Shown here: positions 22,553 through 64,000 of the stretch, one piece after another
Layout of the letters: each line of letters begins with the position of its first letter
Position numbering within the stretch: position 1 is the first letter of the stretch
DNA from: Gonapodya sp. JEL0774
Lineage: Eukaryota
Assembly (NCBI GenBank): GCA_027604505.1
Contig: JADIIX010000003.1
Span: 62,001 to 126,000 of the forward strand
Direction of reading: 5' to 3'
DNA length: 64,000 bases
Program-made: the position numbers and the translations under genes
Notes under the pieces: generated by a model
Database searches by the model: none
Told to the model about the DNA's origin: nothing
What the model saw: only the letters and a program-made list of their open reading frames with translations

Positions 22553-23686
22553 TCAAACCAGACCACAGGCCCTGGAAGCCACTGGAGCCTTTCCACATGC
22601 TTGCACCTTTCCCGCATGCTTGCACATCCCCCACGGGTCGAGCACAAAACGCTCACCTGCGCTCTTCCCCTGTTCCCCACTATCTCCAGTTCCGACTCTG
22701 GTTCCTGCTCCGACACTCACGCCTGTCGGTGACTTTCCGGTACTTTCACCGAGTGCAGGGATCGCGTCCTCGACCGCCTGTCCCGCGGAGGTATCGCCTA
22801 TCACAGGTTGTGCATGAGAATGGTGGGAAGGAGGAACTGCCAGGGGGGTGTAAGAGGAAGATGGTTGTGCGGATGGGGAAGAGGAGTGCGCGGGTGGGTG
22901 GGAGTGACTTAGCGCTTGTTGTTGTTGCGCTGGTGGTGGGGGTGGTAATGGAGATGTCGTCGTGGTAGAGGGGGCCGTATTTGAATGGGTATGCGATTCT
23001 GGATAACCGGTAGACGCTGCTCCGCCTCCTCCTCCACTGCCGTCGCCGGCGTACCCTCCCGATTGATATCCTGTCTGATATGCCCCTTGGTAAGAGTGAG
23101 GGTATGCGTTGTGGTGATGCGGGTGCGCGTTTTGGGAGTAGTGGGGTGGGAATGGGTAAGGATAGGGATAAGGGTACGGATACGGATACGGATTTGCGTG
23201 TACGTTGTAAGGATAACCGTCGTACGATGACGCGGGTTCGTATGGGACTGGATCAGGGTTGACGGGATGTTGGTGGAGTACGACAGTGGCGACAGTGACG
23301 AAGACGGTTTGAGTAAGTGGGGGCAGGGTGGTTGTCGGGGGGGGTGGTGGGGGAGGGAGGGGTGGACAGTGGNNNNNNNNNNGGGTGTGTGGGGGGGGGG
23401 GGGGGGGGGGTGGGACGAGCGGAGGTGCGGGCTCTGGGAGAGATGTACAGGTTGCGGACGAGACAAGCGAAGCGGTGTGGAAGGGGAGTTTGTGGGGTGT
23501 ATCTATGGAGACATGACTGTGAACGTGAAGAGCAGGGTCCGGATCAGGTTCCAGGGGATCGGAAGTTGAAGCCATTGCGGGTGGTAGATGTTGGAGCAAA
23601 CCACTGAGAGTAAGAATAGTTGGGGGGATTATTTGGGAAGAGGGAGAACTGAATGTGAGAACATGTGTAGAGTGTGGTTTGTGCAT
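22553..23686 (-). CDS. Hypothetical Pro/His/Tyr-rich protein (spans an assembly gap)
   Basis: 399-aa ORF with polyPro and (YP)n repeats. May have further 3' exons toward 22200. Confidence 0.45.
   Translation of the reverse strand: MHKPHSTHVLTFSSPSSQIIPPTILTLSGLLQHLPPAMASTSDPLEPDPDPALHVHSHVSIDTPHKLPFHTASLVSSATCTSLPEPAPPLVPPPPPPPPHTXXXXHCPPLPPPPPPPTTTLPPLTQTVFVTVATVVLHQHPVNPDPVPYEPASSYDGYPYNVHANPYPYPYPYPYPYPFPPHYSQNAHPHHHNAYPHSYQGAYQTGYQSGGYAGDGSGGGGGAASTGYPESHTHSNTAPSTTTTSPLPPPPPAQQQQALSHSHPPAHSSSPSAQPSSSYTPLAVPPSHHSHAQPVIGDTSAGQAVEDAIPALGESTGKSPTGVSVGAGTRVGTGDSGEQGKSAGERFVLDPWGMCKHAGKVQACGKAPVASRACGLV
23373..23382. other. Assembly gap (10 N) inside a G-rich tract
   Basis: nnnnnnnnnn next to a poly-G run. 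Confidence 0.99.
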
Positions 23687-25568
23687 CAGGATGGAATGAG
23701 CCTCCGTGCCACCGCCCGTCAAAGCTCGCCGCAATCGGCGAAAATGTGTCACTCTTGTCGCTGCCGGTGAGCAATGGACGAACTGTCAGGCAGTGTCGTT
23801 CAGGGTGTGGTGAGTTGAACGATCAGAGACAGGGGTGAAGGAATCCTCAACCACTACCGCATTCTGCCCATCCGACATCGACAAAGTCATAAACTGAGTT
23901 GCTCGGAGATGGTAAACCAAGTCAGATGCTCATGCCGAATGGGCAATTTCGCCCAATTGGAGCTTCGACTTTTGATTCCGCTTGTCCGAACTCAGTCTAA
24001 TCCGACACGGTTAGCTTTTCCGACCGCGAGCTGTGCATGGAATCAATATGACAATCCGTCCTCGAAATGATTGGTGCACTATGCAACGCAGTGATTTTCA
24101 GATGGCAGTTGGAATGTTGAGAGCATGTTCCTGTTGGCCGATTCCTGAGCGAATCCCCGAGAAAGAATTGGCTTTGATGGACTGAATTGCATCGGTTGCA
24201 TCCACAGCCAAAGGTGGAAATATGTCGCGGCAATCGCGAAAACTCTGAACATCGAATATTTGACAGGAAAGAAGGAAAAAGCACAAGGACGGCGTGGGAG
24301 ACAATGGGAGACACTCACGTGCGAACCAGAACTGACTCAGATTTGCTCCTCACTCCTTCAGTCGGGATCTCGTGTGGGCGTGGGGCTGGGGAACAGAATG
24401 CTGCTATTATGAACCACGTCACACCGACCCTGCAGACCACAGCACCATAATGGGTGTAAAACATTACGGATATAACACAACAATTCAAAGTTCCTATGTC
24501 GTCTCTTTACAATTATGACTTGAGGGGATTTGGAAATCCACCGGCGGGCTGGGACGTCACAGATCCGTCACACTTTCGAAAACATCCCCGTGTCGCAGTC
24601 GGAATCAGTAATGATCAGCATAGTTATTGAGTATATTAACAGAAATATATGTGCGTGGAGATCAGGCCATGCCTCCGCGTGGCTTCTCTGGGCACATCCG
24701 TATTCTGGAGTGCCCTATAAATTGTTCGCGAGTCCATCAGAATGTCAAAGTTTTGGTAAACGAATGGAAAACCATCCTTTGCAGGCCTCTTGCCATTTTG
24801 TGGTTGCGAGAACCATGCTTGTATAGCCTTACGGATCCATCTCTGTTTGGCGAAACAGAAATCATTGGTTTGCAGGAAGCAAAGTTGGCCAGGCTAGAAT
24901 TAGAGCGCTCACCTTGTTCTTGACATCGATTTCAAGTTCACGTCTCGGCTACAAAAAAAGTGTGACACAAACATTTGTTTCGTGGCTCGTTCCCTATCTC
25001 CGGTAATAGCAATATAATGACAGGCTCAATTGTGCGCCTTACCAGCCATCTCCTCTGGTGTTGGTTGCTGAGTTTGAAAAAGACTGTGATAAGTATTGGC
25101 AGATTATGGAGACAAAGTACATTTCATGTGTTCTCACATTGTAAAGGACATAGATCCGGCAACGGGGTTGTATCGGATGACATGTCATTTGACCCAATCT
25201 CAATGAGTTTCAGCATACTTGGCAATAAAGTTGGGTGGTGGAGACTTCGCTTCGCTGCAAACCTCTTTTTGGAGCCACGGCACTAAGGGGAGTGGCTTCC
25301 CCTGCCATTGTCGTGCGCCGTGCCCGACCGACGTGAGGATGGATCGACCCGTCCTCATCCCCAATCGTCTCAGCGAGACTGCGAGATTTTTTTGCTTTTC
25401 GTTCGCTTAGAGTGTGTTATTTCTCCGCGTCCGATCCGGTGCTTTCGTGTCATCCTTGTCGTTTCATTCCATCCCTCTTCACGGTCTCCCTCGAGCCACT
25501 TCATCCTGCCATCTTCCGCCCTGGGCCCCATTCCAACGTTGAGCTCTTTGTTCGTGTTTCTCTCGCCT

Positions 25569-26904: not shown

Positions 26905-26984
26905 TGAGTGGTGGTTCTCGTAATGAGATCGGTGCATATGGCCTTGAGTGGTGGTTCTCGTGATGGGATCGGTGCATATGGCCT
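26905..26984 (+). repeat. 40-bp tandem repeat x2
   Basis: TGAGTGGTGGTTCTCGTRATGRGATCGGTGCATATGGCCT twice, with 2 mismatches. Confidence 0.95.
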
Positions 26985-46800: not shown

Positions 46801-49599
46801 CAGTGATGCGTACAAGACTTGCAACGTTGCGGGTGCCACTCCTGGCAGTCTGCTCATCGACGGCAGTGACTACGTTTACCAAGCTTTCGGATTCACGGCA
46901 TATTCTTCAACCGTTTGGTGGAACTTCGGGGCTGTTGCTGGGCTCTTCGTCATTTCGATTCTGATGGCCGTGAGAGAAAGCCTTTTAGAAAAGTTTTTTT
47001 CTTGCATTCTAAAGTATGAACTTTCCATAGGTTGTTGTCTCGGAGATCGCTGAGTTTGGGGCCAGCGGAATCAACAGCATGATTTACAAGAAAGGCAAAT
47101 TGCCCCGTCACCTCGAGAAAGCTGACGACACCTCGGTGGAGATCAACGAAAACGCAGTTACTCGCGTCGCTTCTCTTGAGATGAGCAATAGCCTCAACTT
47201 AACCTGGCGAGGGCTGAGCTATTGGATCACTCTTCCAACCGGAGAGCGTCAACTCTTGACAAACATCTCCGGTGCTGCCCGCCCCGGTCGAATGCTCGCC
47301 CTCATGGGATTTACGGGCGCCGGTAAAACTACCCTTCAAGATGTGCTTACTCGGCGAAAGACAGACGGACGGATCGAAGGGTCCGTGTATGTTGGTTCTC
47401 TGCCACAAACCTCTGGATTCAAGCGAATCATGGGATACGCAGAACGTGAGTCTCAAATTCTGGCCTTTCGTGAATGAGTGTTGTGCTCTTTGTGATTCCG
47501 TCACTCCTATTCAGAAATGGACGTTCACACTCCGACAAGCACGATTCGCGAAGCGTTGCGATTCTCCGCTTACCTTCGTCAACCCCCGGAAGTTTCTGTC
47601 GAGGAAAAGAACCGATTTGTTGAAGAGGTAACTTTTGTTATTATCACTGATTGCACTTTCCGAATATGACGATCGTTTTATCTTAGATCATCGAACTAAT
47701 GGGCTTGACCGATATCGCAGATGCTCTGGTCGGCAAGCTGGAGACAGGGGTGGGCATCAATCTCACCGATCGTAAGCGTCTCACAATTGCAATAGAGCTT
47801 TGTGCTCGCCCCGAGTTCCTCGTACTTGATGAGGTGTGTTTCGCCTCTGGCTATATTGTCGATTCAATTCTCTTAGTGTATTTCCTTGGCAGCCGACGTC
47901 TGGCCTCGACTCCTTCGCAGCTTTCCAGATTGTTAAGCTTCTGAAGAAACTCGTGAGCTTCTATTACCTGTAAAACTACTTGCGATACTCTGACATGTGC
48001 TTGTTTAAACACAGGCCGAGAAGGGGCAGGTGGTTCTTTGCACGATTCACCAACCTTCCGCGATCCTCTTCGAGCACTTTGATGATCTTTTGATGCTTGG
48101 TCCTGGTGGTAAAACTCTTTACTATGGAGAGATCGGGCCGAGTTCCAAAATTGTCACGAGCTATTTTGAAAAGCGCGGCGCAGCACCCTATGACCCGAAC
48201 GAGAATCCCGCCGAGTACGTTATGGATGCCGGTAATGGTTTGAGGAATGACGACATCGAAGCCTCAGTCGATTGGGTTGCGCTCTGGAAGGAATCTGAGG
48301 AAGCCAATGCTCTGGAAGCTATGATAGATAGACTTCGCAACATCCCAGTGGACGATGGGGCTCAGGAGTTGCAGAAGAAAGAGTACAGTCTAAACACACT
48401 ACAAGTGAGATGATCATCCGTTTTCTCCTCTTCCTGTTAGTTACGTACTCATCATTCAAAAACTTCCAACTCTTAGCAAATTCCAATTGTCTTGGAGCGA
48501 ATGATGTTGGCATACTATCGCAACCCCGACTACACTTTCGGCAGGGTGACAGTCGCTCTGATCAACACACTTATATTGAGTTTCTCGTACTACCAAGTCA
48601 GTCACGATGCAGGGGGAGTATCCAACCGCATCTACGCAATCTTCAATGCAGCCACGTCTGCTGTTGCCACGATTATGGTGAGCAGCTCCGATGTACATTC
48701 AGGATGCGATCTTGCTTACCCCCCGCGCCGTAGATATCACTACCTCACTTCCTTGAGCTGAAGAAGTACTTTAAGCGTGAAAACGCTCAGGGTTTCTATA
48801 ATTGGTTTTCCTTTTGCACCGCTATTACAATCGCTGAAGTGGGTATTGACTCGCTAAAATTGATTTGATGAACTTCACTCATTGGCCTCCAACATTTAGA
48901 TTCCGTACACAATTATCCAGTCCACTGTATACTTCGTGATCTTCTATTATGTCATTGGCCTGTCCAAGTCATTAGCAGACGGTGCGGTCTTCTGGGCATT
49001 CTTCACTCTCCTCCAATTCTTCGCCGTGTCGATCGGCCAGTGGATGTCGGCTTTGTTACCCAACCTTCCCTTGGTCACTGTCCTGGCATCTCTTATTACG
49101 ACAGTTTTCCCAGGATTTGCGGGCGTTGGTACACCCATATCGCTCATCCCGAAATTCTGGTATTGGATGTATTACCTTGACCCTTATTGTGAGTTGGTAA
49201 TCGTTTGTAGAGTTGATCAGCATTTGGGATTAATCCGCGATCTCGTTTATTCTAGACTACTTTAGCGAGGCGACTTTGGAGACGGAAATGCACGGCCTGA
49301 ATATCCAATGCCAGGACTCCGAGTTCCTTCGTTTCGCACCCCCTCCCAACAACACCTGCGAATCGTACATGGCCCCTTACTTTGCCGCAGGAGGACCTGG
49401 TTACCTGCAAGACCCTACTTCTACCACCCTGTGTGGACTTTGCCAAAGCGCAAGCGGTGAAGCTACTCTGGCAAACCAGTTCTCATTTTCTCACGACAAC
49501 ATTTGGCGCAACTTTGGCATTCTCGTCGCAATGATCGTCATGAATCGGGTGTTGTTATACGTGTTTATGAGGAGGAACGCTATGGTGTCTGCCAAGTAA
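43882..49599 (+). CDS. Full-size ABCG/PDR-type multidrug ABC transporter (many introns)
   Basis: NBD1 LVLGKPGSG...[10 protein letters not shown]...[13 protein letters not shown]2 [12 protein letters not shown]...[10 protein letters not shown]...LDEPTSGLDS, CTIHQPS; PDR-type cysteine extracellular loops. Confidence 0.95.
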
Positions 49600-50030
49600 C
49601 CGCATTTAGTGAAGGGATAAGTGCACCTTGGGTCCCAAACTTCAGTTGCAATCTCGTTGGATATACGGCAAACTCGGTCGCAAACCACTGATAGATTAGA
49701 ATGGTCATATTTTCTCCGCATCGCATAAATTGAATACATAGATAGTCTCAGTGACGCTTTGCTGCCTGTGTGAATCAACGTGAAAGTTCTTGCAAGCACA
49801 TCCTTCGCTCTCGTTCATGCAATTATCACCCGCTACAAATGTGGATGAAAACCGTGTATAAAAGTGGTGGTGGCGTACGATCCCAGACTACTTCAACTCC
49901 AGTCGCCACAACTTCTACTATGTAACAATTGTAACCCCTCCAGGAGGATATCCACGATCTGAACCAGGGTATGAGGAGAAGTCTTCAAAGAGTACCCGCC
50001 TTAGAAGTTGTCACCCTCACCATCCAAAAA

Positions 50031-50197
50031 CACGGCAAAACAGCAGGTCCCTCAAATAGGAGGTGAGACCTTCACTTATCGACAAGTCTTCGGACCTCTG
50101 TCATCTAGAAAATTGGAAACGATACAGAGAAGATTAGCATGGCTCCCTGTGCAAGGATGACACGCAAGTTCTGAGATGGATCTCAAATTTTTTTTTT
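50031..50197. repeat. Repeat A, inverted copy of about 58138-58304
   Basis: Identical by eye to the reverse complement of the U6 locus, including 50 bp upstream. Confidence 0.97.
50081..50192 (+). ncRNA. U6 spliceosomal snRNA copy lacking the downstream B-box (possibly non-expressed)
   Basis: 5' UUCG hairpin (GACAAGTCTTCGGACCTCTGTC), ACAGAGA box, AGATTAGCATGG, CCTGTGCAAGGATGACACGC, T10 terminator. Confidence 0.9.
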
Positions 50198-50470
50198 CTA
50201 TTCCCATAGTCTCTCTTCTCCCCGGGACTCAAGTCACTCTCCTACTCACTCTCCTGGTCACTCTCCCCGGGACTCATGTCGTCTCCTACGCTTAGAGTCA
50301 TCCATCTCAGGACTTGGGAGACTAACGTCACTGGAGTCTGGCTGAAATAGAGACGGACTTCAGTCACAGCGTACTACACAAGTCACTGTTGGGTGTCGAC
50401 AAGTCTGTTCAGTACTCCCGTTTCCCACCGCATGATGAACATATGTACATATCAACATATGATACACCTA
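50198..50470. repeat. Repeat B, inverted copy of 52737-53013
   Basis: 273 bp, differing by 1 substitution and a 4-bp CCGG indel. Confidence 0.97.
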
Positions 50471-50915
50471 TTGACATAACTCCCCGCAAATCAAGCCCGA
50501 GCCACGGTCTTGTCATTCTCGGTAACAGTCGGAGAAGGGGAGCATTGCTCACAACCATTGCTATTGTCAACGGCCTCACCGAGCTCATTTCACATGCGTA
50601 AGCCGTGCCGTGGCCCCGATCATCTCAAGCTGGCCAAAGAAGCACGTAAAATCCGCGAAACTCGAACGCAACACAGGTTGATCGAAGCATGCGAATGCGT
50701 ATAGCCGTACTTTTTACACAGAAAACATTTCAAATTGAGAGGCGGAGTCACGCGGAGCTTCATATCGAACTGTCCTGACCGTACCTGGCGCCACGTTTCT
50801 CATCAACGGAATAACGACCTTTACCCGTCTCTGCAATATATCAGCGCCTTCGATCTTGCATCATTTACCCTCTTGATCACTGAAAAGTATTGACTGCAAT
50901 TACATCACCGACACT

Positions 50916-51983
50916 ATGAAGTTCGAAGAGTTCAATCCTGCCCGCGACATGCCAAGTCTCTCGGGGAAATGCATTCTCATCACTGGAGGTGAACATTGAT
51001 GTTTCGCACTGGAAGGGTGGAGAGTTCTGTTACCTATTTAATATCTGCCTGTCGGAAAAACTTCCCGGCCGTATTACTCACTAGGCACTGCGGGACTCGG
51101 CAAAGACGTCGTTCTCGCGCTCGCCAAGATACAAAATCCTCCATCGAGAGTATACTTTACTGGCCGCGCTGTATCAACTGACAAGGCAGCTGCAGTCGAA
51201 ACAGAGTTCTTGGACGCCCTCCCACTTCAAGCCAAGTCCACCAGCAAGGCGGTCTTTGTGCCTTGCGATCTCGCATCGCTCGCAAATGTGAAACAAGCAG
51301 CTGGATTGCTCGTAACATATCTCCAAGAGAACGACCCCGCTGCCACACCTCCGCGCCTTGATGTTGTCATTTGCAATGCCGGGATCATGGCTGTCCCTCC
51401 ATCGGTCACCAAGGACGGCTTCGAGATTCAGTTCGGGACAAATTACATGGGTCACGCACTGCTCGTCAAGCTTCTCCTTTCAAACCTTGTTGCCGCCAAA
51501 GGTCGCATCGTCTCGGTAACGTCGCAGGGACAGGGGTTCGCTGACATCATTCCAGGCGGTATTGCGTTCTCCAGTCTCTTGTCGGAACAAACTGGATCTG
51601 GCTTTGGGTTCTTGGGGACCTGGAAGAAGTACGGTCAATCGAAGCTAGCCAATGTCCTTTTTGCACGTGAGATTGCCCGACGGTACCCCGACGTCACAGC
51701 CATCTCCATTCACCCTGGCGTAGTTAATACGGGTCTCGTTTCTACGCTTGGTTTCTGGAACAACCTGTTGGTGAAAGTAGGCGCTCGTTTCAATTCCCCC
51801 GAAGATGGCATCAAGAACCATCTGTGGGCCATTGGGTCGGAGAAGTCGGCTGTTAAAAACGGAGGTTACTATGAGCCCGTGGGAGAGCCTGGAAGGAAAA
51901 CGAGATACAATGAGGACAGTGAGCTGGCAGCAAAGTTGTGGGACTGGACGGAGAAGGAGCTGGGGAAGTGGACTACGACGTAA
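50916..51983 (+). CDS. Short-chain dehydrogenase/reductase (retinol dehydrogenase/WWOX-like)
   Basis: ILITG|GTAGLG, CNAGIM, QFGTNYMGH, YGQSKLAN, IHPGVVNT; one intron. Confidence 0.93.
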
Positions 51984-52736
51984 ACATTGCAGCAAGTGAC
52001 TACGTATCATTGCATTTGAGTTATTGTTCTCATTTTATATATAAGTGTCTGAGACCGTTGAATCCACAGACGCAGACACTATAGCCACAACCGACTTGTT
52101 CATTCTCGGGTAACATCTGCCGAACATGAATATCATAAGGCCCCTTGACGACTCTTTCTCCGAAGTTATTCTGTAAGTGAAAGCCACGTTCTATGCGTGC
52201 CGGATGACCTCCAATGTAGGTGCACGAGGTGCACTGTGTTCGGTTCCATGATCCAATATTGTGGAATCGATGGAACCACCTTCACTAAAACTTCCAAGCT
52301 CGCAGAGCAAATGGAAATCATGACGCTGTGGTAGTTACGCAATGGTGTGGTGAATGTATAATGTGTGCATGCCTGATGAGTGGAACTCATCGTTCAAATG
52401 CTGTAAGGTACCCTGTACGTGCAAATGATCACTCCCACTCCACCAAAATTCCAAATGTGCATGTAAATATTTGATTCTGTGAAACAGCTACTCCAGAGCG
52501 GTACTCTTAGTGTCTTTGACAATACTTCCTTTCGCGCAGCCTTCAAAGCTGCTATATCGCCTCGCCCTTTTCTACAGTAACGCTAAATATAATATCTGTG
52601 GGTGTGGCGTGTTTTTGGTATATGGTGATATGATATAGTACGGCAGATTCACAAAAACCGTTCCCAAACCTCTGGATCAACTGCCACGCATGAATCACCA
52701 CCCATCGGCTCAACAATACGTTTATTTCGTAATGTC

Positions 52737-53013
52737 TAGGTGTATCATATGTTGATATGTACATATGTTCATCATGCGGTGGGAGACGGGAGTACTGAAC
52801 AGACTTGTCGACACCCAACAGTGACTTGTGTAGTACGCTGTGACTGAAGTCCGTCTCTATTTCAGCCAGACTCCAGTGACGTTAGTCTCCCAAGTCCTGA
52901 GATGGATGACTCTAAGCGTAGGAGACGACATGAGTCCCGGGGAGAGTGACCAGGAGAGTGAGTAGGAGAGTGACTTGAGTCCCGGCCGGGGAGAAGAGAG
53001 ACTATGGGAATAG
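52737..53013. repeat. Repeat B', inverted partner of 50198-50470
   Basis: Reverse-complement match, read directly. Confidence 0.97.
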
Positions 53014-53760
53014 GAGAAGGCACCCTCAGACCCTGAGGCTCCTGCGGCACACCTGTGGGATGTCGTCAATATGTGGTACGATCACCACAACACCCCACAC
53101 GGACATCCCCGTCAGGCTGATGTTACAATGACACGAGGAGAAAAAAAATTACGAAGCGGTTGATTTGGAGGCATTGTGTGCCAACGTCGACTTGAATCTC
53201 GGCCTGCCTTCTGTTGCTGGCCTCAAGCAGTGGTAGGGGACGGCTTTTCTCGTCGTCGGCGATGGCTGGACAGCAAGCCCGTGGATGGATTATTGATTCC
53301 GGCGGTTGGTCCAATGTTCGGACCACTTGCTCATCTGAAGGGCAATAACCTAAAGGTGGTATACGTATATGTTATACAGGGCATTGCTGTACATCAATTT
53401 AAAAACTTAGGGCACGAAAGAAACCCTGAAGAGTCGGAGCACTCCTTGGGAATGGGGTGGTGCCTGATCAGGCAATCTGGCGGCGGATTCAGTTTGAACC
53501 TTCTTAGGGAACATTCCTGTTTCCCTACTGAAAATCGGCGTCAATACGAATGGAAGAAACACAACAATCTCACCCGAAATTGAGAAAGGAATGCATGACT
53601 CTCGAGCAAGTGAGACCTTCCATCTTGCTTCACGAGGAGGTTTGCGACGACTCCCCTCACTCCAAATCAACGTGATTCGTCACCTGTTTCGTTTCAAAAG
53701 CTCCCTCTCCTCCTCATATCCGATATTCAGAACCATCTGAAGACCGGGCCTCTCTCTCAC

Positions 53761-56700
53761 GTGTTCCGGGACATTACCTTTGCTCCATCTCAAGAAGTCC
53801 ACATTCCAGGCACCTGGGCAAATTTACACACGAACGAGACTCTTGATGCAGAAAACCTCGACACTGCACTTATCCCCCAGGTTTCAGTGAAACTGTCGGA
53901 GGGGCTTGTGGAGTTTCCCTTACCGAATGCCTACTTCTCATCGCTCGAGTATTGGCATGCGAACCGCCTGGACCGCACAGCAGGGTCTGAAGTCCTCCGG
54001 CACTCCAAAAGTACGCAGGGTGGAGCAGCGAACTTCCTCTTTACTTCAAAGCAGTGGATTCGTCTTCACTTGCACTCCCCAACCATTCCTGACCACCATG
54101 CTCCAACTCTGCCAGCATCTCTCTTCTCCACCCTGACCAATAATTCTTCATCTGCTCTTGCCATGGAACCTAGGCGGAAATCGGGTGCTTTTGCGCAGGG
54201 TGTGGCGCGGCGTGTTGCAGGTGACCTACCGGAACAGGATCGGGATGACTACTGGAGGAAACTCTATTTGGCATGGTGGCTCCTGCTGAATTTGAGGCTC
54301 AACGCAACAGATTTGAGTGGTATTGTGGACGTGGCTCCAACAGCGCAAGGCTGGGTCAGTTTTCCAAAGCACAGGAAATCCTTTGTCGACAGTCTCACCA
54401 AGATACTGCGGGACCAAAATTGTGCTCAGCTCGCTCTGTATGTTGGCCAAAGTCTACGAGAACTGAATGACAAGCTAAAACTGTCAAAGCTGGCTACACT
54501 CTGTCAACGGTTCGAAGTTGCCCATGGTATTTTTATAGCCCGAACATTCGGCAGGTGGAGATCAGGGGTACTCGTCAGACTCTCCAAACCACCACATAGG
54601 CAGTTCCAATCTGTCATGTTGCTGGATATTCTTGGAGTGTGGAGTGTTGGCCTCTTGCTGAAACACCACGATGCTGGTGCCGTGGTCGTTGTTGGTGGGG
54701 ATGTTCGAACCCTGGAATCAGAGGCAGCACTCGCAACCATCAGCAATCAACTTGGAGACGCAGTGAATGTGGTCTGCCACACCGTGGTTGATCTTTTTGA
54801 GCCCCCTTTCAATCCGGACGGCAGCGTTCGTGCTCAGACAATTGATTTGCTCAACAACTTGATCCGTCGAAAACTACTTGGCCAAGAGCGGCAACCAATA
54901 AAGGACAGCTTCAGCGCTATTAGCTGCTGGGAGGAATCCGAACCCGATGTTGTCTTCCCGCTGATTGTTATTGTGATGCGTGTGTCAGACTTTTGGCAAG
55001 CCGTCCGAAACGGAGCGCTTCTGGAGCAGCAGTTGGTTGGACTGTTCTTCGGGATCCTCAATGGACAGTGGGATGAACTGGCGCAAGTGGAAGTTGACGA
55101 TGACTTTGTTCTCGGTGACAACGGAGACAACTTTGATGGTGCATTCGACGCATCGGAAGTGGAGTCAGCGGCGCAAGCAAAACCCACCGGGAAAACCAGT
55201 GCTCGCATTTTCTCGCCAAAAGTCAAGATTATCCTGGAATTTGCGTCGTCAAATGTGCATCCCCTGAAAAGTCGCACGTTCTTGTCGTCCTGTCTCAACA
55301 ACATAGCCGATTCGACTGGTGGAATCCTCGCGACCATTCACCCAGATCGGTTGACTCGCAGACCAAATGAAGTACGCGAGGTACTTTCCGCTTTGCGTGC
55401 TAAAGGCCTCACATGGGAACTTCTGCATCGAAACGGAACGAGATGGTCAAAGTAGTTGAGGAGAAGGTGATGAAGCAAGTGGAGCAGGGCCGAGCTCTCG
55501 CCCAGCAACAAGCGTTTTACACCAGGTCACAGATGTTCCAGCGCCGAGTCTTGGCTTCACTCCTTTCTTTCACTTGCACTTCCACCTCACACAGTTCGCT
55601 CTTGGAAGTACAAGCGGGATTCCGTCGTGTGGAGTTTCCGATAAAAGGAATTGCGCGAACAAGCCCTGTGGCGTGGTGAGTTGCTCCTTTGCATAATCTT
55701 GCTTCTTTGTATGGGGGGAAATGGCCTACGGGCGGTGGGACTCATTTGGGTAGATTCGAGATTTCGATCGACTTTTAGCAACACCGGTGATTTCTTCATT
55801 TCTAGGGGAGCACGGGAACCATCTGAGCTATCGATTACCACTCAAACTTCCTTCTTGAAATCCATCGTGGGACAGGAACAACTCCATGTCGTTCCTTTGG
55901 AGGCCGTGACTGCCTCCGAAGCAGACGGTGGCCGTGTGCTTGAATTCATTCAGTCTTGCGAGAGGAATGCTATCGTCGTTGCAGTCTCGTTGGATCGTAT
56001 TAGTCGTTCAACATCGGGCCTCCAAAGTATCCTGGAACTGTGCTCAGCGAAAAGCATCCGGATCATTGTCCTCCTTTGGCACCTCGAGTCGTTTCTCCAG
56101 CTGAGGGGCTCTCTCTCTTCTTGTGCTCCACGTGACATAGCTGGATGGCGAACAGAATTTGCTCGCACGGTGCTTGGACTCCAATTCTCCTGGGATCCAG
56201 ATGTTGCGCTGGCTCACCTCCCTGAACTTGAGTTCTGCGCATCCAGTTCTTACACCATGCCGCTTTGCTTTCCAGGCGACCTTGTACACCTCGGAATAGG
56301 TAACGCAGCGATGAGGATGGAGCTTCAGTTCGGTGAAGATTTTGCCAAAAGTGGAGCACGAAGAGGAAGGGAGGCTGCAAGGTTTGAGCGTCCGGTGGAA
56401 CAAGATATCTTGAGGCTCGAGATGAAAACAGACGTAAGGAACGGTCTCTTGACACCCCGAGCCCAGGATGCCGTTGGCAATGTTGCGCAAAAATTTTTCC
56501 CGGGAGCGTCCATCGAAGTTTTGTCGAGCTCAAACCCCATTGACTGCTTCTGTGTCCATCTCCCTCCTGGAACTCCCCACGCCAGTGACTGCCAGTGCCC
56601 CTGTCGCGGATGTCAGAGACTTCGACCGTGTATTTCACCTGATTGTTGTGCTGACAGAGAGCTCACACCCTGCACATGCTCTTTGCTGTGTTCTTGCACC

Positions 56701-57066
56701 TGTTTGTCGTGTCACAGGGTTTCTGTTGAGGCCGAGTTGCAGTCCGATCCAGACATTTCAACAAGCGACGGTGTGGTCGTGTCAGGAACAGAGGAGAGCA
56801 GGAAGCGGGAAGTGGAGCAAGCTCAGGAAGGGGACTCGGAAGACGCGGATGACGGTTCTGCTGTACCTTGTATTACGCTGTGTGGACGGAATCGGTCGGC
56901 AAAGACAAAGTGGTGCTCCAAAGAATGCTATGTTGATTACAGCAGGAACAACGGGCACGTCGTACGCACCTGTGACTTTTCCGGCTGCACAAACATATGT
57001 CCACCCGGTGCAGGTTTGAAATGCGAGAGTCACGTGTGGCGATGTGCAAAATTGGGGAAGCGTTGA
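53761..57066 (+). pseudogene. Tandem serine-recombinase (resolvase-like) domain protein with Cys-rich C-terminus; one frameshift, one intron, decayed 5' extension
   Basis: Domain 1: VIVMRVS(54985)...LEQQ...IHPDRLTR(55345), then helix-E-like QVEQGRALAQQQAFY in the -1 frame. Domain 2: IKGIARTS(55662)P-VAW|intron 55676-55805|GAREPSELSITTQ...VSLDRISR(55993). CxC-rich tail. Confidence 0.7.
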
Positions 57067-57576
57067 CCCAGGCTGGGTGTACGATTGGAGGGAAGTATGT
57101 TAATGGGTGTTTTGAATAGGCGTTATGATCCGGACGTGTGACTTGTAGTGCGAGTAGAATGAACAGACTTGTTGACACAACGGTACCGTCCAACATCTCG
57201 AGAACCACCAGCTCCCGAGTTACGACAGCTTACGCCGCACCTCTCATAGTTGGTGGTTCTGTTGCGAGGGTAGGCGTATACAGAGCGGGTCCAGTACCCT
57301 AGAGAGTCCCCGGCACGGGTTTGTCCGACCTCATTCTCTCACCTTCCCCGAGGCACGTTGACTCCACAGTATCCACCGACCACGTAGAGCACCTTTTCAT
57401 TGTGTTTGATGTTTTCGATTCGAGTCGGATGTTGGAGCAGCTCGCAGTGGGCGAGAAAGGTGGTGCGAGAGGAAAGAAGGTCAGCAACCGCGAGACCGAG
57501 AGCGAATGTTGATTCGGCCATGAAAGCAGTTGCGGCGCCATCACACACTCTGGGCGAAGCTATAATCACAGTTTCT

Positions 57577-57662
57577 GATTGGACGGAGACGAAAGATTGG
57601 ACGGAGGCGACAGATTGGACGGAGATGAAAAATTGGACGGAGACGGAAGATTGTACGGAGAA
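57577..57662 (+). repeat. 18-bp minisatellite x5 (GATTGGACGGAGACGAAA consensus)
   Basis: Five imperfect in-frame units; VQSxxS repeats on the minus strand. Confidence 0.93.
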
Positions 57663-58083
57663 CTGCGTCCAGTACATGACATTGAACGATCATTGCAGCC
57701 GACGCGCTAACCTTTACCCAGAGCTGATTCGATCAGCTATCCTCCTTTTTTCCATCGTTCACATATCATCATCCCGTTTGAGACCCACGACAGGGGTCGT
57801 CGCCGCTATGGCTGTCCGGTTCTCTCAGTCCAGTGACAGGTAGGTGTCTGATATCCAACCACACCAGAAGGCCACTCCCGTCCATCAAGTATCCAGTCCA
57901 TCTTTTTTATTGATTTTGCCGTGCTCGGGTAGTGAGAACGGGGGTAGGTGATGAGTGAATGCGGATCGTTGCTTGGGCGTTGGACCCACATATGTACAGC
58001 ACAAGTTCTTTTTTCCCCTGCCGACTGGACTGACACGCACAGCAACACTGAATGGAATGCTCATCAGAATCTGTGGAGAGCGA

Positions 58084-58093
58084 GGATCGAACC
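58084..58093 (-). promoter_or_regulatory. Pol III B-box downstream of U6
   Basis: GGTTCGATCC on the minus strand, about 28 nt past the T26 terminator; no tRNA stem around it. Confidence 0.75.
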
Positions 58094-58121
58094 ACCCATC
58101 TTCCTTGCCCCGGGCTAAGAC

Positions 58122-58147
<26 letters not shown>
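58122..58147 (-). terminator. Pol III terminator (T26 on minus strand)
   Basis: 26-A run on the + strand immediately 3' of U6. Confidence 0.85.
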
Positions 58148-58152
<5 letters not shown>

Positions 58153-58254
58153 GATCCATCTCAGAACTTGCGTGTCATCCTTGCACAGGGAGCCATGCTA
58201 ATCTTCTCTGTATCGTTTCCAATTTTCTAGATGACAGAGGTCCGAAGACTTGTC
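58144..58254 (-). ncRNA. U6 spliceosomal snRNA gene
   Basis: Reverse complement: GACAAGTCTTCGGACCTCTGTC...AATTGGAAACGATACAGAGAAGATTAGCATGGCTCCCTGTGCAAGGATGACACGCAA...TTTT. Internal A-box-like TAGAAAATTGG and downstream B-box. Confidence 0.93.
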
Positions 58255-59564
58255 GATAAGTGAAGGTCTCACCTCCTATTTGAGGGACCTGCTGTTTTGC
58301 CGTGCATACCACACAGGCCGCAGTCGTTGCGCCACACTGTCTGCCGCAGCACTTTCTCGTTGCACTCATTCTTCAGTCCAACGATTTGTGACTCTTTCCC
58401 TCCGTCTCAACCGTGATGTTCAACTCATGTGATTCCAGCACGGTGGCGATCGCGAACTTGGCACTCGCCAATCCCCCTCTTTCCCTTGATCCATCCCACA
58501 AGCTGTGCCGTCTTGTTTTCTCATCGTCATGTCGTACCCGCCCCCTCGGATTCTTCCCCTAATGCCCACCTCGCCACTCAACTGCGAAAGACACACCGCC
58601 GGGAATTGATTGGGACCTCGGATGTTGAGACCTCGGTCTTTGATGTGCCAAACTGTTGCTCCATTCAGTGCCCAAACTTGACATTCACTAGAGAGCCTCC
58701 AATCTTTTTGCACAAGGGATCATCATTGCTAATGAAATCTCGTGACGGCAAAGAATTTCACGCTGAATCCTCCGATGGGTGCAAACCACGGCATTCTGAC
58801 CTACCCCCTCCACTCCGTTGAGATTACCCACTTGAACGTTACTCGAAACCCTCACATCTGCAGCGACTAACCGGGCGCTCGCGCTCACTTCGAAATCACG
58901 TGAACCAACTTTTCCCAACTCCACTCGTTTCTCTCCGCCAATTTGACCTGCCGGAGAAGCAACCCTCGAACGCGCGCTCCGTCTATAAATCTCCTGTGAA
59001 ATGACTTGCCCTGAACTGCAGCTATAAGTGCTATTGCATCGCGTCTCGGACACCGCCCCACTGTGCACATTTGGGACATCCTGGAGCACACGTTCGTCTC
59101 CAAAAAGTGTTGCCAACGGCACCGCAAATCAGTAAATGAAGATCCCGAGCGAACGAAACCTCAGATTTATCATTTATGTAGTCCACCCGCCATAACGAAC
59201 ACGAAGAGTTTCGGAATCTCATCACATCAGGCCTCCCTCGAGTTGGAGCCACTCCTCAACAATACACCAAAACGACGTGCGGGACTTTGTTGCGGAAATT
59301 GTTGACGTCACAAGTACATCTTCATGAGCCGGTTCTGTACAGACTAGTATATCATCGGTAGAACGTAGTTACGAGATGCTAACCTTGTGAAATGAGATTC
59401 GACATAGGTTGTGAAACCGTGTCGACGGGAAGAATGCCCAATCAGTGTAATTTACCCAAGTAGGCTCTTGAGGAGGTACCCAACGTAATTCGTGGGAGTG
59501 GGAGTGCGGGTGGTGTTCGGCCTGCACATTCCGACCTTCCCCACCACGAACCAAATCCATCACC

Positions 59565-61461
59565 ATGGGATTCGACTACAGCATCCTCGTCAACATCAAA
59601 GTCGACATTCGTCCCGATGGCATATGCATCCTCACGTTGAACAGGTACCCCCTTGTTCTAGCCCCCCTGTTTCCCGCGGTGGACGTTCGGAATCCCCACA
59701 AAACCAACCCGGCTGCCCCCCCTACCCTATTTTTGTACATAGGCCCGAACGCATGAACTCGTGGAATGATTTCATGGCCATGGAACTTATTGTATGTGTA
59801 GGCTGGAGTGGGGAAAGAGCAAGAGTGGTTTTGGATTCAGGAGCTCTTGTGGTTTGAAACGATGTCCATCCCCATCACCAATTTCGATACCCACCCAACT
59901 CTGCCGCCAATCACGCTTGGCCTCGGACTATGGCCTCCTCACCTGCATTCTCTAACCCCTCACCCAACCCGCACCCCACCTCCTGTCCTCCCCTTTCCCC
60001 TCATATCTCCAGGTCGCCTTCGAAGAACTCGACCGCGACCCATCCGTCAAGGCCATCATCGTCGCCGGAGCCGGCCGCGCATTCTGCGCAGGCGCGGATC
60101 TGTCCCCTGCCGGTGCGAAAATTGCTGCGAGTCGAAGGGTGGACAGGATGAACCAGCACAGGGATTCGGGGGGGCAGGTCACGGCCAGGATCGCGAAATG
60201 TAGGAAACTCGTCGTGGCGGCAATTCATGGGCCGGCTGTGGGCGTCGGTATCACTATGGTGGGTCGTACTCTCGGTCGGACTTTTGACGGATTCGCAACT
60301 CACAGATTTGTGTCGCTGGTGTTCACAGACTCTCCCCATGGACATTCGAATCGTGTACAAGGGCGCAAAGATTGGGTGCGGCTCGGTGGTGTAGCTCTCG
60401 CCTTTCATACGCAGGGGATTCATTCACCAACAAACCCCCACTCAAACTCCAACCTACCCGTTTTCCTTCAGCTTTGTCTTTGTGCGGAGAGGAATATTAC
60501 CAGAAGCCGCGTCGTCCTGGTTCCTCCCACAACTCATCGGAAAGTCGCAAACGCAAGCCCTGTTCATGCCTGGACGGGTCCTCACGTGAGCGAGAGAGTC
60601 GCCTACACTCGTCGGGTCATTGCTCTGTCGAGGCTCAAATAGCACGACCGTGTTCCTCACTCACCCACTTTTGGAAAAGTGCCGACCATCATCTCTTTAA
60701 CGGGCTCTTCTTCGACCTCATCGATTCGCCGGACAAGGTTCTCCCTGCGGCTATCGAATTGGTTAAGGAAATCGTTCAGAACGCGAGTTTGGTGTCGATC
60801 GCGATTACAAAGGTGCGTTGGAGATACAACCTTGAATCTTGAAACCGGCATCTCGAAACTGTGGTTCACGTGGCTCGTCAGGCAATGGTCTGGCACGACC
60901 AGGGTTCACCAGAGGGACAGCATTTGCTCGACTCCAAGGTTAGTGCGGGTTGTATCCTAATATTCGTCGCTTGCTATTTGGGCTTACATATGTGTTTCTG
61001 AAAAGGGCATCCTCTACACTGGTAACGGAGCGGATTCTCGCGAAGGAACATCGTCGTTCCTGGAAAAGAGGTGTGCTGGAACGTCGTGATTTCTCTTCGT
61101 AAACATCCACGATGACTCTCTATAACATTGAATTACTAGAATTCCCGAGTTTCCTGGTCGGATCGACGGGCCCAGTGGAACATACGGTGAGTCGCTCGTA
61201 CCCGTTCTTTGGATTCGCTCATTCACCTCAACCACTGATACATTCAGGCCTTCCAAGCTACTATCCGTGGTGGAACTCTCAAGACATTAGCAGTCCCGAT
61301 TGGGTGAGCTGAGTCGCAGCGCTCCTCGCACTGGGGATTCACTCTGGCTGGTAGACCTTTGCTGACCACGGTTGTCTACTACGCAGCCCACCGACCGTGC
61401 TTCGCAGCTCGCGCTGCTCGCACAATTCCGCAAAATTGAGGCGGAGAACAGCAAATTGTAG
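59565..61461 (+). CDS. Enoyl-CoA hydratase/isomerase (crotonase), predicted peroxisomal (SKL)
   Basis: ILTLN|RPERMNSW, GAGRAFCAGADL, VAAIHGPAVGVGITM, FVRRGILPEAASSWFLP. Final exon ends AENSKL*. Confidence 0.9.
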
Positions 61462-62687: not shown

Positions 62688-63317
62688 GGTAGCCAGTTTT
62701 GAAACGTCTTCCGGGAGTGATTGACTGCGAGGCCTCTTTTCCGCCTTCTCCGTGTCTAGATCGCGAGAACGATCAACCACGCCAATGTCCAAGGAACCTT
62801 CTTCGGAGGTTCGCTTCCGCTTCAGGCGGTTGGCAGCTTTCCGGATCACCGGCTGAATGCGCTGAGGCAGCGAAGAATCCGTTTTTGTATCGTCCAGGCT
62901 CGCGATTAAGCGCGAAGACCGGACGTGATAGGACGAGGTGAGAGCAACGAGGGGTTGGATGCCCAGAGAACGGCCAGGAAGTGAACCCAAGGACCGCTGA
63001 AAAGGGAATCGATCGAATGTTTTCTTGGCGGACGCGGCAAAGTGTCTGGACGGACGTCTGTTACCGCGAATGTCCGGCGAGTAAACGGCACAATGGAACA
63101 GTCTGGAGCCTTGGAATCCTGAATGTGTGGGCGGGGCCTCGTGATTCGGAGCTCACTGGCGCTGCTTGATTCTGAATCACCCTCTCAAGTTCGTCGCTAC
63201 GGTGCGATTCACTGGTGACCGTCGTTGAACGTTTGGAATGACAAACCCTCTCCCCTCACAGGTTTGGGCTTTGGTCACCATATCAACAACCCACTGTATT
63301 TGTATGTTATTCTCCAT

Positions 63318-64000
63318 TTAAATTTTCGAGGCGGAAGCCTTCAACTCAGCTCCTCTTCGTCTATATTCCTCAATGTTAGAAGGCCAGAGAGGATCGGAGC
63401 TGACATCGGTGTGCTGCCACCAGGGGTAGTTAGATGGTAGGCCGTACTTTCCATTTGCTGGATCGTTCTTTACATTGAGACGGCCTGCAAATGCAGGAGG
63501 TCTCTTCTCTAAGAACGAAACGGCTCCTGTGCGTTGAAGAATAAAGTCAGTTGCATGCTCGTGCAGGCCACCAGAAGGTGAAGGTACGACGGACCTTCCA
63601 ATCGATCAGTGCCAGTGCTGGTGTGGTGAAGCATCTGGGAGTCAAGCAGATGCTGGCCTTCTGGAGTTTCGGCACCGTGCCAGACCAGTGCTTTGGTTAT
63701 CGCTGTTGACACAACAGAACATTCCACTGCGATTTCTTTCGCCAGTGCAAGTGCTGCAGGCAACACCTGTTCCGCCTTGTCGACAATCTCGGTAAAGAGG
63801 CCTTGAAACAGATGGTTTGATGCGGGAAGCACACGCCCAGTCATCATGAGAGCAAGGGAGCGTGACTTGCCGATGAGTTGTGGGAGGAAGTATGACGACG
63901 CCGCCTGCAAGTTTGCGTGAAAAGAATGGAAAGTTTGTGTTGCGCAACGCTGTCACACGTTGCTATGGTACGAATGGCGGCACTGAAGGCGAACTAACCT
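63318..64000 (-). CDS. Second enoyl-CoA hydratase/isomerase paralog, 3' part, ending SKI
   Basis: AASSYFLPQLIGKSRSLAL, ITKALVWHGAETPEGQHLLDS, GLPSNYPWW...ASASKI*. Runs off the right edge. Confidence 0.88.

Follow-up and report, generated by a model that had tools for sequence, protein, structure and literature searches.

Prokaryotic serine-recombinase systems are known with recombination sites of two layouts, att and res. Among eukaryotes, IS607EU is named in a 2026 review as the only known DNA transposon that works by means of a serine recombinase (PMC13565253). IS607 and IS607EU, as described in the sources cited, have neither terminal inverted repeats (TIRs) nor target-site duplications (TSDs), and carry short motifs directly repeated near both ends (PMC6188088, PMC4058570, PMC3673617, PMC13565253). 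These traits recur, together with a candidate 2-bp crossover, at a locus of the fungus Gonapodya sp. JEL0774 that we describe here. The window, that is, the whole 64-kb stretch analysed, belongs to one contig of this organism, and all coordinates follow its numbering (Table 1). It contains a gene at 53761-57066 that is predicted to encode two tandem serine-recombinase-like domains, two similar repeats of ~120 bp that bracket this gene, and a 440-bp unit in which a copy of a U6 small nuclear RNA (snRNA) gene adjoins a copy of the region upstream of the recombinase gene. A sequence-only reading of the window had centred on this unit and had seen in it a deletion derivative of an autonomous element mobilising U6. 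In our analysis, the object of interest is the double serine-recombinase gene with its candidate recombination sites, not the U6 copy. The literature searched (Repbase and subscription papers lay outside the search) brought up no account of a eukaryotic tandem double serine recombinase, and the gene and its two repeats likely mark a kind of mobile element undescribed in eukaryotes in that literature.

Pfam finds Resolvase in both halves of the gene, as the sequence-only reading had anticipated in calling it a serine recombinase. The exon of domain 2 scores 26.6 bits, above the Resolvase (PF00239) cut-off of 23.3. An R-x-S motif and a D-R-x-x-R motif are present in both domains of the window protein and of P0002, a homologue introduced below. 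We take the first, in VMRVS and GIARTSP, to be the nucleophile motif and both, the second in PDRLTRR and LDRISRS, to be serine-recombinase signatures. A search of 1.84 billion representatives gave three matches, namely the NCBI model of the gene itself (P0001, labelled Gonapodya sp.) and two distant proteins, and a profile search added one homologue, P0004, to P0001-P0003. P0002 (1,105 aa) and P0004 (928 aa) hold both domains, and P0003 (442 aa) starts within domain 2; identity of the homologues to the window protein is ~21-25% overall. P0002 matches Resolvase with 28.8 bits over two stretches. P0004 has both types of motif, but E replaces D in its domain 2. The tail of the protein contains two clusters rich in Cys and His; the first has residues of this kind that are invariant in four of four sequences, and the second is present in three of four proteins. 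No Pfam match covers these clusters (56560-57040), which likely bind zinc. Resolvase also occupied the top three places of an Atlas search (0.87-0.88), which we treat as a lead only; the same search with the whole of P0002 gave no usable match. Nothing below 0.3 came from NCBIfam, and word-index protein searches with each open reading frame (ORF) gave no match.

The reading frame is interrupted once, by a frameshift, and has no internal stop over 993 codons, where 1% neutral divergence predicts about 1.1 stops. Since no stop has accumulated, the frame was probably lost recently, unless the shift is a sequencing error. Such a loss would fall on the time scale of the duplication described below, in view of the one substitution and one indel found there in 440 bp, plus a change in a T run. 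A programmed frameshift at 55410-55455 was considered and rejected from the sequences of the frames. The NCBI model P0001 (53595-61458) skips the frameshift by means of a doubtful intron that removes conserved residues. This model also fuses the recombinase to a downstream enoyl-CoA hydratase across the U6 gene, lacks conserved Cys residues, and is likely a mis-annotation.

The gene lies between two old repeats. The stretch 57064-57179 resembles 50510-50392 on the minus strand (nhmmer E 0.0063 in one of six queries, E 8e-4 on a re-run). The repeat extends 40 bp beyond the edge of the 440-bp unit (50470/50471) and stops at the edge of the long copy, 52737. In a flank test against copy 2, the score was 32 with 50471-50570 and 19 with 52637-52736 or without any flank; 32 was reached by 2 of 5000 random flanks. 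From the repeat pair, a pattern of two blocks was derived, which matched at 50393-50478 and 57096-57178 only. As the repeat continues past 50470 and not past 52737, the junction at 50470/50471 would be old and that at 52736/52737 new. The side of the short unit is therefore very probably ancestral, and 52737 a secondary cut through the repeat. This does not fit the earlier proposal that 52737-58304 is an autonomous element with those termini. The motif GACTTGT occurs twice near each end (52802 and 52823; 57140 and 57166), out of 15 sites in the whole window. A search with the 19-bp core of the repeat matched one viral contig (L001) that holds no homologous protein, and this match is treated as chance. 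On the stretch from the old repeat to U6, 57577-57666 holds an 18-bp unit repeated in tandem four to five times.

How the locus compares with described systems can now be considered. IS607 and IS607EU have a single catalytic domain (PMC3673617, PMC6188088); here two catalytic domains are predicted in one chain of ~1,100 residues, with a Cys-rich tail and an intron, and the ends are alike over ~120 bp. Pfam gives only Resolvase in ORF1, ORF2, P0002 and P0004, so that the MerR helix-turn-helix (HTH) that precedes the single catalytic domain in IS607 is not seen in them. Likewise, no TnpB-type Pfam match (TnpB/Fanzor2 being an IS607EU trait) was obtained within 52737-58121 for the ORFs and frames that were scanned, and the GG termini of IS607EU are not present at the junction sequences. 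The position of the gene between two similar direct sites recalls the prokaryotic serine-recombinase integrative elements, with their attL and attR, and res sites. Unlike these, the locus shows no inverted half-site symmetry and no match to an HTH or large-recombinase domain, and its host is a eukaryote. In its mode of action, the locus would come closest to the serine-recombinase integrative elements. Only tentatively can a second class of serine-recombinase transposon be put forward for eukaryotes, with a build unrelated to that of IS607EU. If it were real, one chain would combine two catalytic domains, as a covalent dimer, with zinc-binding modules and would recombine ~120-bp att-like sites around its own gene; recent activity of the element would also have cut its left site and rearranged the adjacent U6 locus. 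Its architecture differs from that of IS607EU, and the first candidate DNA sites and crossover for it would be those found here, which makes mobility directly testable. A single-chain double recombinase working in the nucleus would interest genome engineers.

The 440-bp unit consists of two pieces. Piece A (50031-50197) is identical at 167 of 167 positions to the reverse complement of 58138-58304. Piece B (50198-50470) differs from the reverse complement of 52737-53013 by a substitution at 50422 and by a 4-bp indel whose additional bases belong to the long copy (BLASTN). The pieces touch directly, with no spacer, in the order and on the strands that they have in the 5.57-kb segment, and global alignment gives the unit as this segment minus 5,124 bp, order kept. 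The T run of the short unit counts 10 residues, that of the long segment 26. Thus, the inverted copies, their junction in consistent order and the recent, DNA-based nature of the duplication, all put forward in the sequence-only reading, hold. BLASTN found no further copy of the unit within the window. Neither the ends at 52737/58304 nor those at 50031/50470 show TIRs, a TSD or a common junction dinucleotide, so that insertion of the unit as a derivative that arose from the element by deletion, as had been proposed, is not borne out. Folding of the 440-nt unit is no better than that of shuffles (z -0.82). Two observations concern piece B. Its 4-bp indel is a tandem CCGG duplication at 52982-52991, compatible with either direction of change. 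In addition, 52891-52907 (and 50300-50316) agrees at 16 of 17 bases with the 3' part of U6; its orientation is opposite to that of the U6 stretch 58154-58170, and the two lie at similar distances, 154 and 134 bp, from the end of the segment. The score of this 17-mer was reached by 0 of 2000 shuffles but by 2 of 401 overlapping background windows (one locus), and a U6 target mimic was dropped as a reading. Another 16/17 match to U6, antisense on the + strand, is found at 25442-25458, where there is no Rfam family, and is probably due to chance.

The break points give further indications. In the long copy, the break lies within the 15-bp conserved block of the repeat, next to an AA common to both repeats (50471-50472 on the minus strand; 57102-57103), and this pair of bases is missing there. 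Beyond the AA, the sequence agrees at 7 of 8 positions with the octamer that ends at 52736 (chance 0.0033 for offsets up to 3), and its next four bases agree at 3 of 4 with the tetramer starting at 58305. Cuts by serine recombinases are described as leaving 2-nt 3' overhangs at a central dinucleotide (PMC4058570), and the AA is a candidate for such a crossover dinucleotide.

These features can be assembled into a scenario to which we give about an even chance, in which one local rearrangement, of recent date, left the 440-bp unit as a scar at the edge of a ~4.4-kb double-recombinase element with att-like repeats, itself ~1 kb downstream of U6, a host gene. That the recombinase gene belongs to a mobile element at all is slightly the better bet. 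Long ago, a recombinase element bounded by att-like repeats would have inserted near U6. Before the recent event, two direct repeats of ~120 bp would have formed its left and right junctions, ~4.4 kb from each other, U6 lying 1 kb beyond them. The left repeat would then have been broken at the AA and its end joined to the look-alike site at 52736, two bases being lost, as would happen if an end cut at the AA were joined to a look-alike whose centre does not match. Repair synthesis with template switches, one of them in the U6 T tract, would have copied 273 bp of the element end and 167 bp of U6. Two ancestral layouts can be proposed. Either the 5.6-kb block of U6 plus gene moved from the position of the short unit to 52737-58304, inverted, or the 2.3-kb spacer with the dehydrogenase gene was inverted, a copy of U6 serving as filler. 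Both layouts require three new junctions, identical in the two cases, and make U6 a bystander; the first layout is slightly favoured on account of the 3/4 match at 58305. The least certain step, and a doubtful one, is that the recombinase itself made the break at the AA. The duplication of U6 is probably a one-off, ordinary by-product, and it illustrates how a gene of RNA polymerase III (Pol III) gets copied and loses its B box. A one-off rearrangement was among the alternatives listed in the sequence-only reading, and of those it fits best.

Several points weigh against this scenario. Domain 1 reaches only 15.9 bits (E 0.014), below the 23.3-bit PF00239 cut-off; sequence searches of the PDB gave no chain below E 0.8; and AlphaFold 2 (AF2) models were too poor (pLDDT 33.8 and 29.2), Foldseek giving no match at E<=0.001. 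Each family member, P0001 to P0004, is a singleton cluster, with no sign of high copy number, and scans of viral contigs, metagenome contigs and prokaryote genomes found no family locus. Outside the two blocks, the repeats are only ~60-65% alike, and inspection reveals no inverted symmetry of half-sites about the AA, a symmetry that canonical crossover sites are described as having (PMC4058570). The repeat statistics are post hoc, the test having been made once the match was known, and the block-1 pattern derives from both copies, 4 of 100 shuffles giving two matches at 2 mismatches. The junction at 52736 is also compatible with plain microhomology-mediated repair, and neither of the other two, one in the T tract and the other 50 bp upstream of U6, falls in a candidate recombination site. 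CpG depletion is marginal (observed/expected 0.80, against 0.81-1.04 in 13 other windows). Finally, insertions of two fragments from one locus in the same orientation are reported as very rare in yeast (PMC11724301).

The most serious rival, which we nevertheless hold to be unlikely, is an accident of template switching or break repair independent of the recombinase, the gene being a domesticated or dead host gene and the repeat a local duplication of old date that plays no part in mobility. The 7/8 microhomology at 52736 and a junction within T26 suffice for template switching, and the singleton clusters give no indication of high copy number. Multi-fragment templated insertions are known in yeast and, as at this locus, can consist of pieces of 100-300 bp copied from nearby, with microhomology at a junction (PMC11724301). 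Domesticated serine-recombinase genes also exist in yeast (PMC2715888, PMC3673617). Here, however, one break coincides with a candidate recombination site. An accident leaves unexplained why the repeat brackets a recombinase gene and starts at its stop codon, and why the cut falls in the best-conserved block of the repeat; moreover, fold-back priming on the 7/8 microhomology would retain the two bases that were lost.

It is improbable that a 5.6-kb element including U6 transposes as a unit and that the 440 bp are a Ds-like derivative of it, newly inserted or left by abortive gap repair at the donor site. The short unit does correspond exactly to both ends of the long segment, in order, and the whole of a U6 unit, from position -50 through the B box, lies within the segment. 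Ac/Ds derivatives, which arise by abortive gap repair, likewise consist of both ends of a near-identical longer relative (PMC3814204). In the Ac/Ds case, both members share true termini and have unrelated flanks, whereas the ends common to both units here are not transposon termini: one of them, at 52737, cuts the older repeat, whose continuation over 40 bp adjoins the short unit only. The absence of TIRs, a TSD and a common junction dinucleotide, and of a second copy within 64 kb, also stands against this explanation. A link between a mobile element and U6, with internally deleted derivatives, is described for Dada-U6, but Dada encodes a DDE transposase, inserts inside U6 and makes a 6-bp TSD (PMC3706591); here the recombinase is of the serine type and both U6 genes are whole. 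At the locus, Pfam gives no DDE match, no 6-7-bp TSD is seen and no U6 is interrupted. The proposed mobilisation of U6 is further argued against by the position of the right U6 gene, ~1 kb outside the repeat-bounded 4.4-kb unit, and by its promoter layout, which is of the host type.

Rfam identifies two identical full-length U6 genes (RF00026), at 50081-50192 (+) and 58254-58143 (-), with 81.4 bits each, both spanning model positions 1-105. A B block downstream of the gene is the layout of yeast SNR6, where it is essential, and it is reported as variable among fungi (PMC5855946). This SNR6-type layout, with the B block beyond the terminator, is present for the right U6 and absent near the left one. 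The B-box core GGTTCGANNC occurs twice over both strands of the 64-kb window. At the left copy, GTTCGANNC is absent from 50190-50900, with a relaxed match at 50680 alone. The right gene is thus likely the working copy, and the left one likely weak or silent. The B box beyond the right U6 indicates that the DNA left of 58122 is the native downstream region of this gene, which speaks against an insertion at the U6 terminator. Compared with the Rfam consensus, both copies have a further U ahead of the conserved CCCUG, and their 5' stem-loop is enlarged. Past the terminator, 58075-58121 (-) is loosely tRNA-like, with an A-box-like start ~25 nt before the B box and a CCA end; ARAGORN called no tRNA in the 64-kb window, this stretch included, and Rfam gave no RNA family besides U6 in 49500-59500.

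An assembly artefact is very improbable. There is an N gap elsewhere in the window, but the closest one lies at 23373-23382, with no N within 26 kb; furthermore, the copies are not identical, as T-run length, one base and a 4-bp indel set them apart, and three unique junctions would each need read support. Least credible of all is that the short unit is an empty allele into whose U6 terminator 53014-58121, perhaps a retrocopy with a poly(A) tail, was inserted: an A26 run does close this stretch on the sense strand of the gene, but the B box would fall inside the supposed insert, the gene retains an intron, no TSD is seen, and piece B carries part of the repeat that pairs with 57064-57184 and is therefore not naive host DNA. 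The sequence-only reading had also ranked this possibility as the weaker one, which stands; its reason, a decayed frame running through 53013, is unconfirmed, as the three + frames of 52737-53960 gave 0 Pfam matches and tblastn of three homologues on this stretch gave no alignment (best E 0.11, on the - strand). Two further candidates were rejected. U6 retrogenes and chimeras of U6 with a long interspersed nuclear element (LINE) begin at U6 +1 and have a TSD; the copy here carries 50 bp upstream and T10, and no TSD. Helitrons are recognised by a 5' TC, a 3' CTRR and a Rep-helicase; the ends have neither of these termini, and no Rep-helicase match was given by Pfam.

Table 1. Features of the Gonapodya sp. 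JEL0774 locus, in window coordinates.
Feature	Coordinates	Strand	Basis or remark
Piece A (50 bp upstream + U6 + T10)	50031..50197	+	167/167 inverted match to 58138-58304
U6 snRNA copy	50081..50192	+	RF00026, 81.4 bits; no nearby downstream B box
Piece B (region upstream of recombinase gene)	50198..50470	-	match to 52737-53013
Old repeat copy 1, complete, straddling 50470/50471	50385..50510	-	nhmmer E 8e-4, flank test, two-block pattern
Conserved block 1 of old repeat, beside AA 50471-50472	50464..50478	-	13/15 bases identical to 57096-57110
Host short-chain dehydrogenase gene, in 2.27-kb spacer between copies of B	50916..51983	+	Pfam adh_short E 2.7e-12; start codon from sequence
Long-segment copy of B, starting with truncated old repeat (outer ~40 bp and AA absent)	52737..53013	+	
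Predicted tandem double serine-recombinase gene, Cys-rich tail	53761..57066	+	Pfam Resolvase in both halves, homologues P0002-P0004; 53761 is a provisional start
Domain 1 (VMRVS 54973, PDRLTRR 55342)	54973..55420	+	Pfam E 0.014; aligned to P0002, P0004
Frameshift between domain 1 and following long helix	55410..55455	+	conserved residues resume in another frame
Domain 2 (GIARTSP 55647, LDRISRS 55990), split by intron	55647..56090	+	Pfam 26.6 bits
Predicted GT-AG intron, 130 nt, in phase	55676..55805	+	same splice in NCBI model P0001
Two Cys/His-rich clusters	56560..57040	+	conserved Cys/His
Old repeat copy 2, beginning at recombinase stop codon	57064..57184	+	nhmmer
Pol III B box, 29 nt past U6 T run	58084..58093	-	pattern GGTTCGANNC
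T26 terminator tract, holding one rearrangement junction	58122..58147	-	
U6 snRNA gene with downstream B box	58143..58254	-	RF00026 and B box

Elsewhere in the window, a 40-bp tandem duplication, 95% identical, is found at 26905-26984. Close to the locus, two enoyl-CoA hydratase paralogues, at 59956-61458 (+) and 63306-63907 (-), are inverted around a CK2-beta gene. Their proteins are 47-59% identical, which corresponds to an older inverted duplication.

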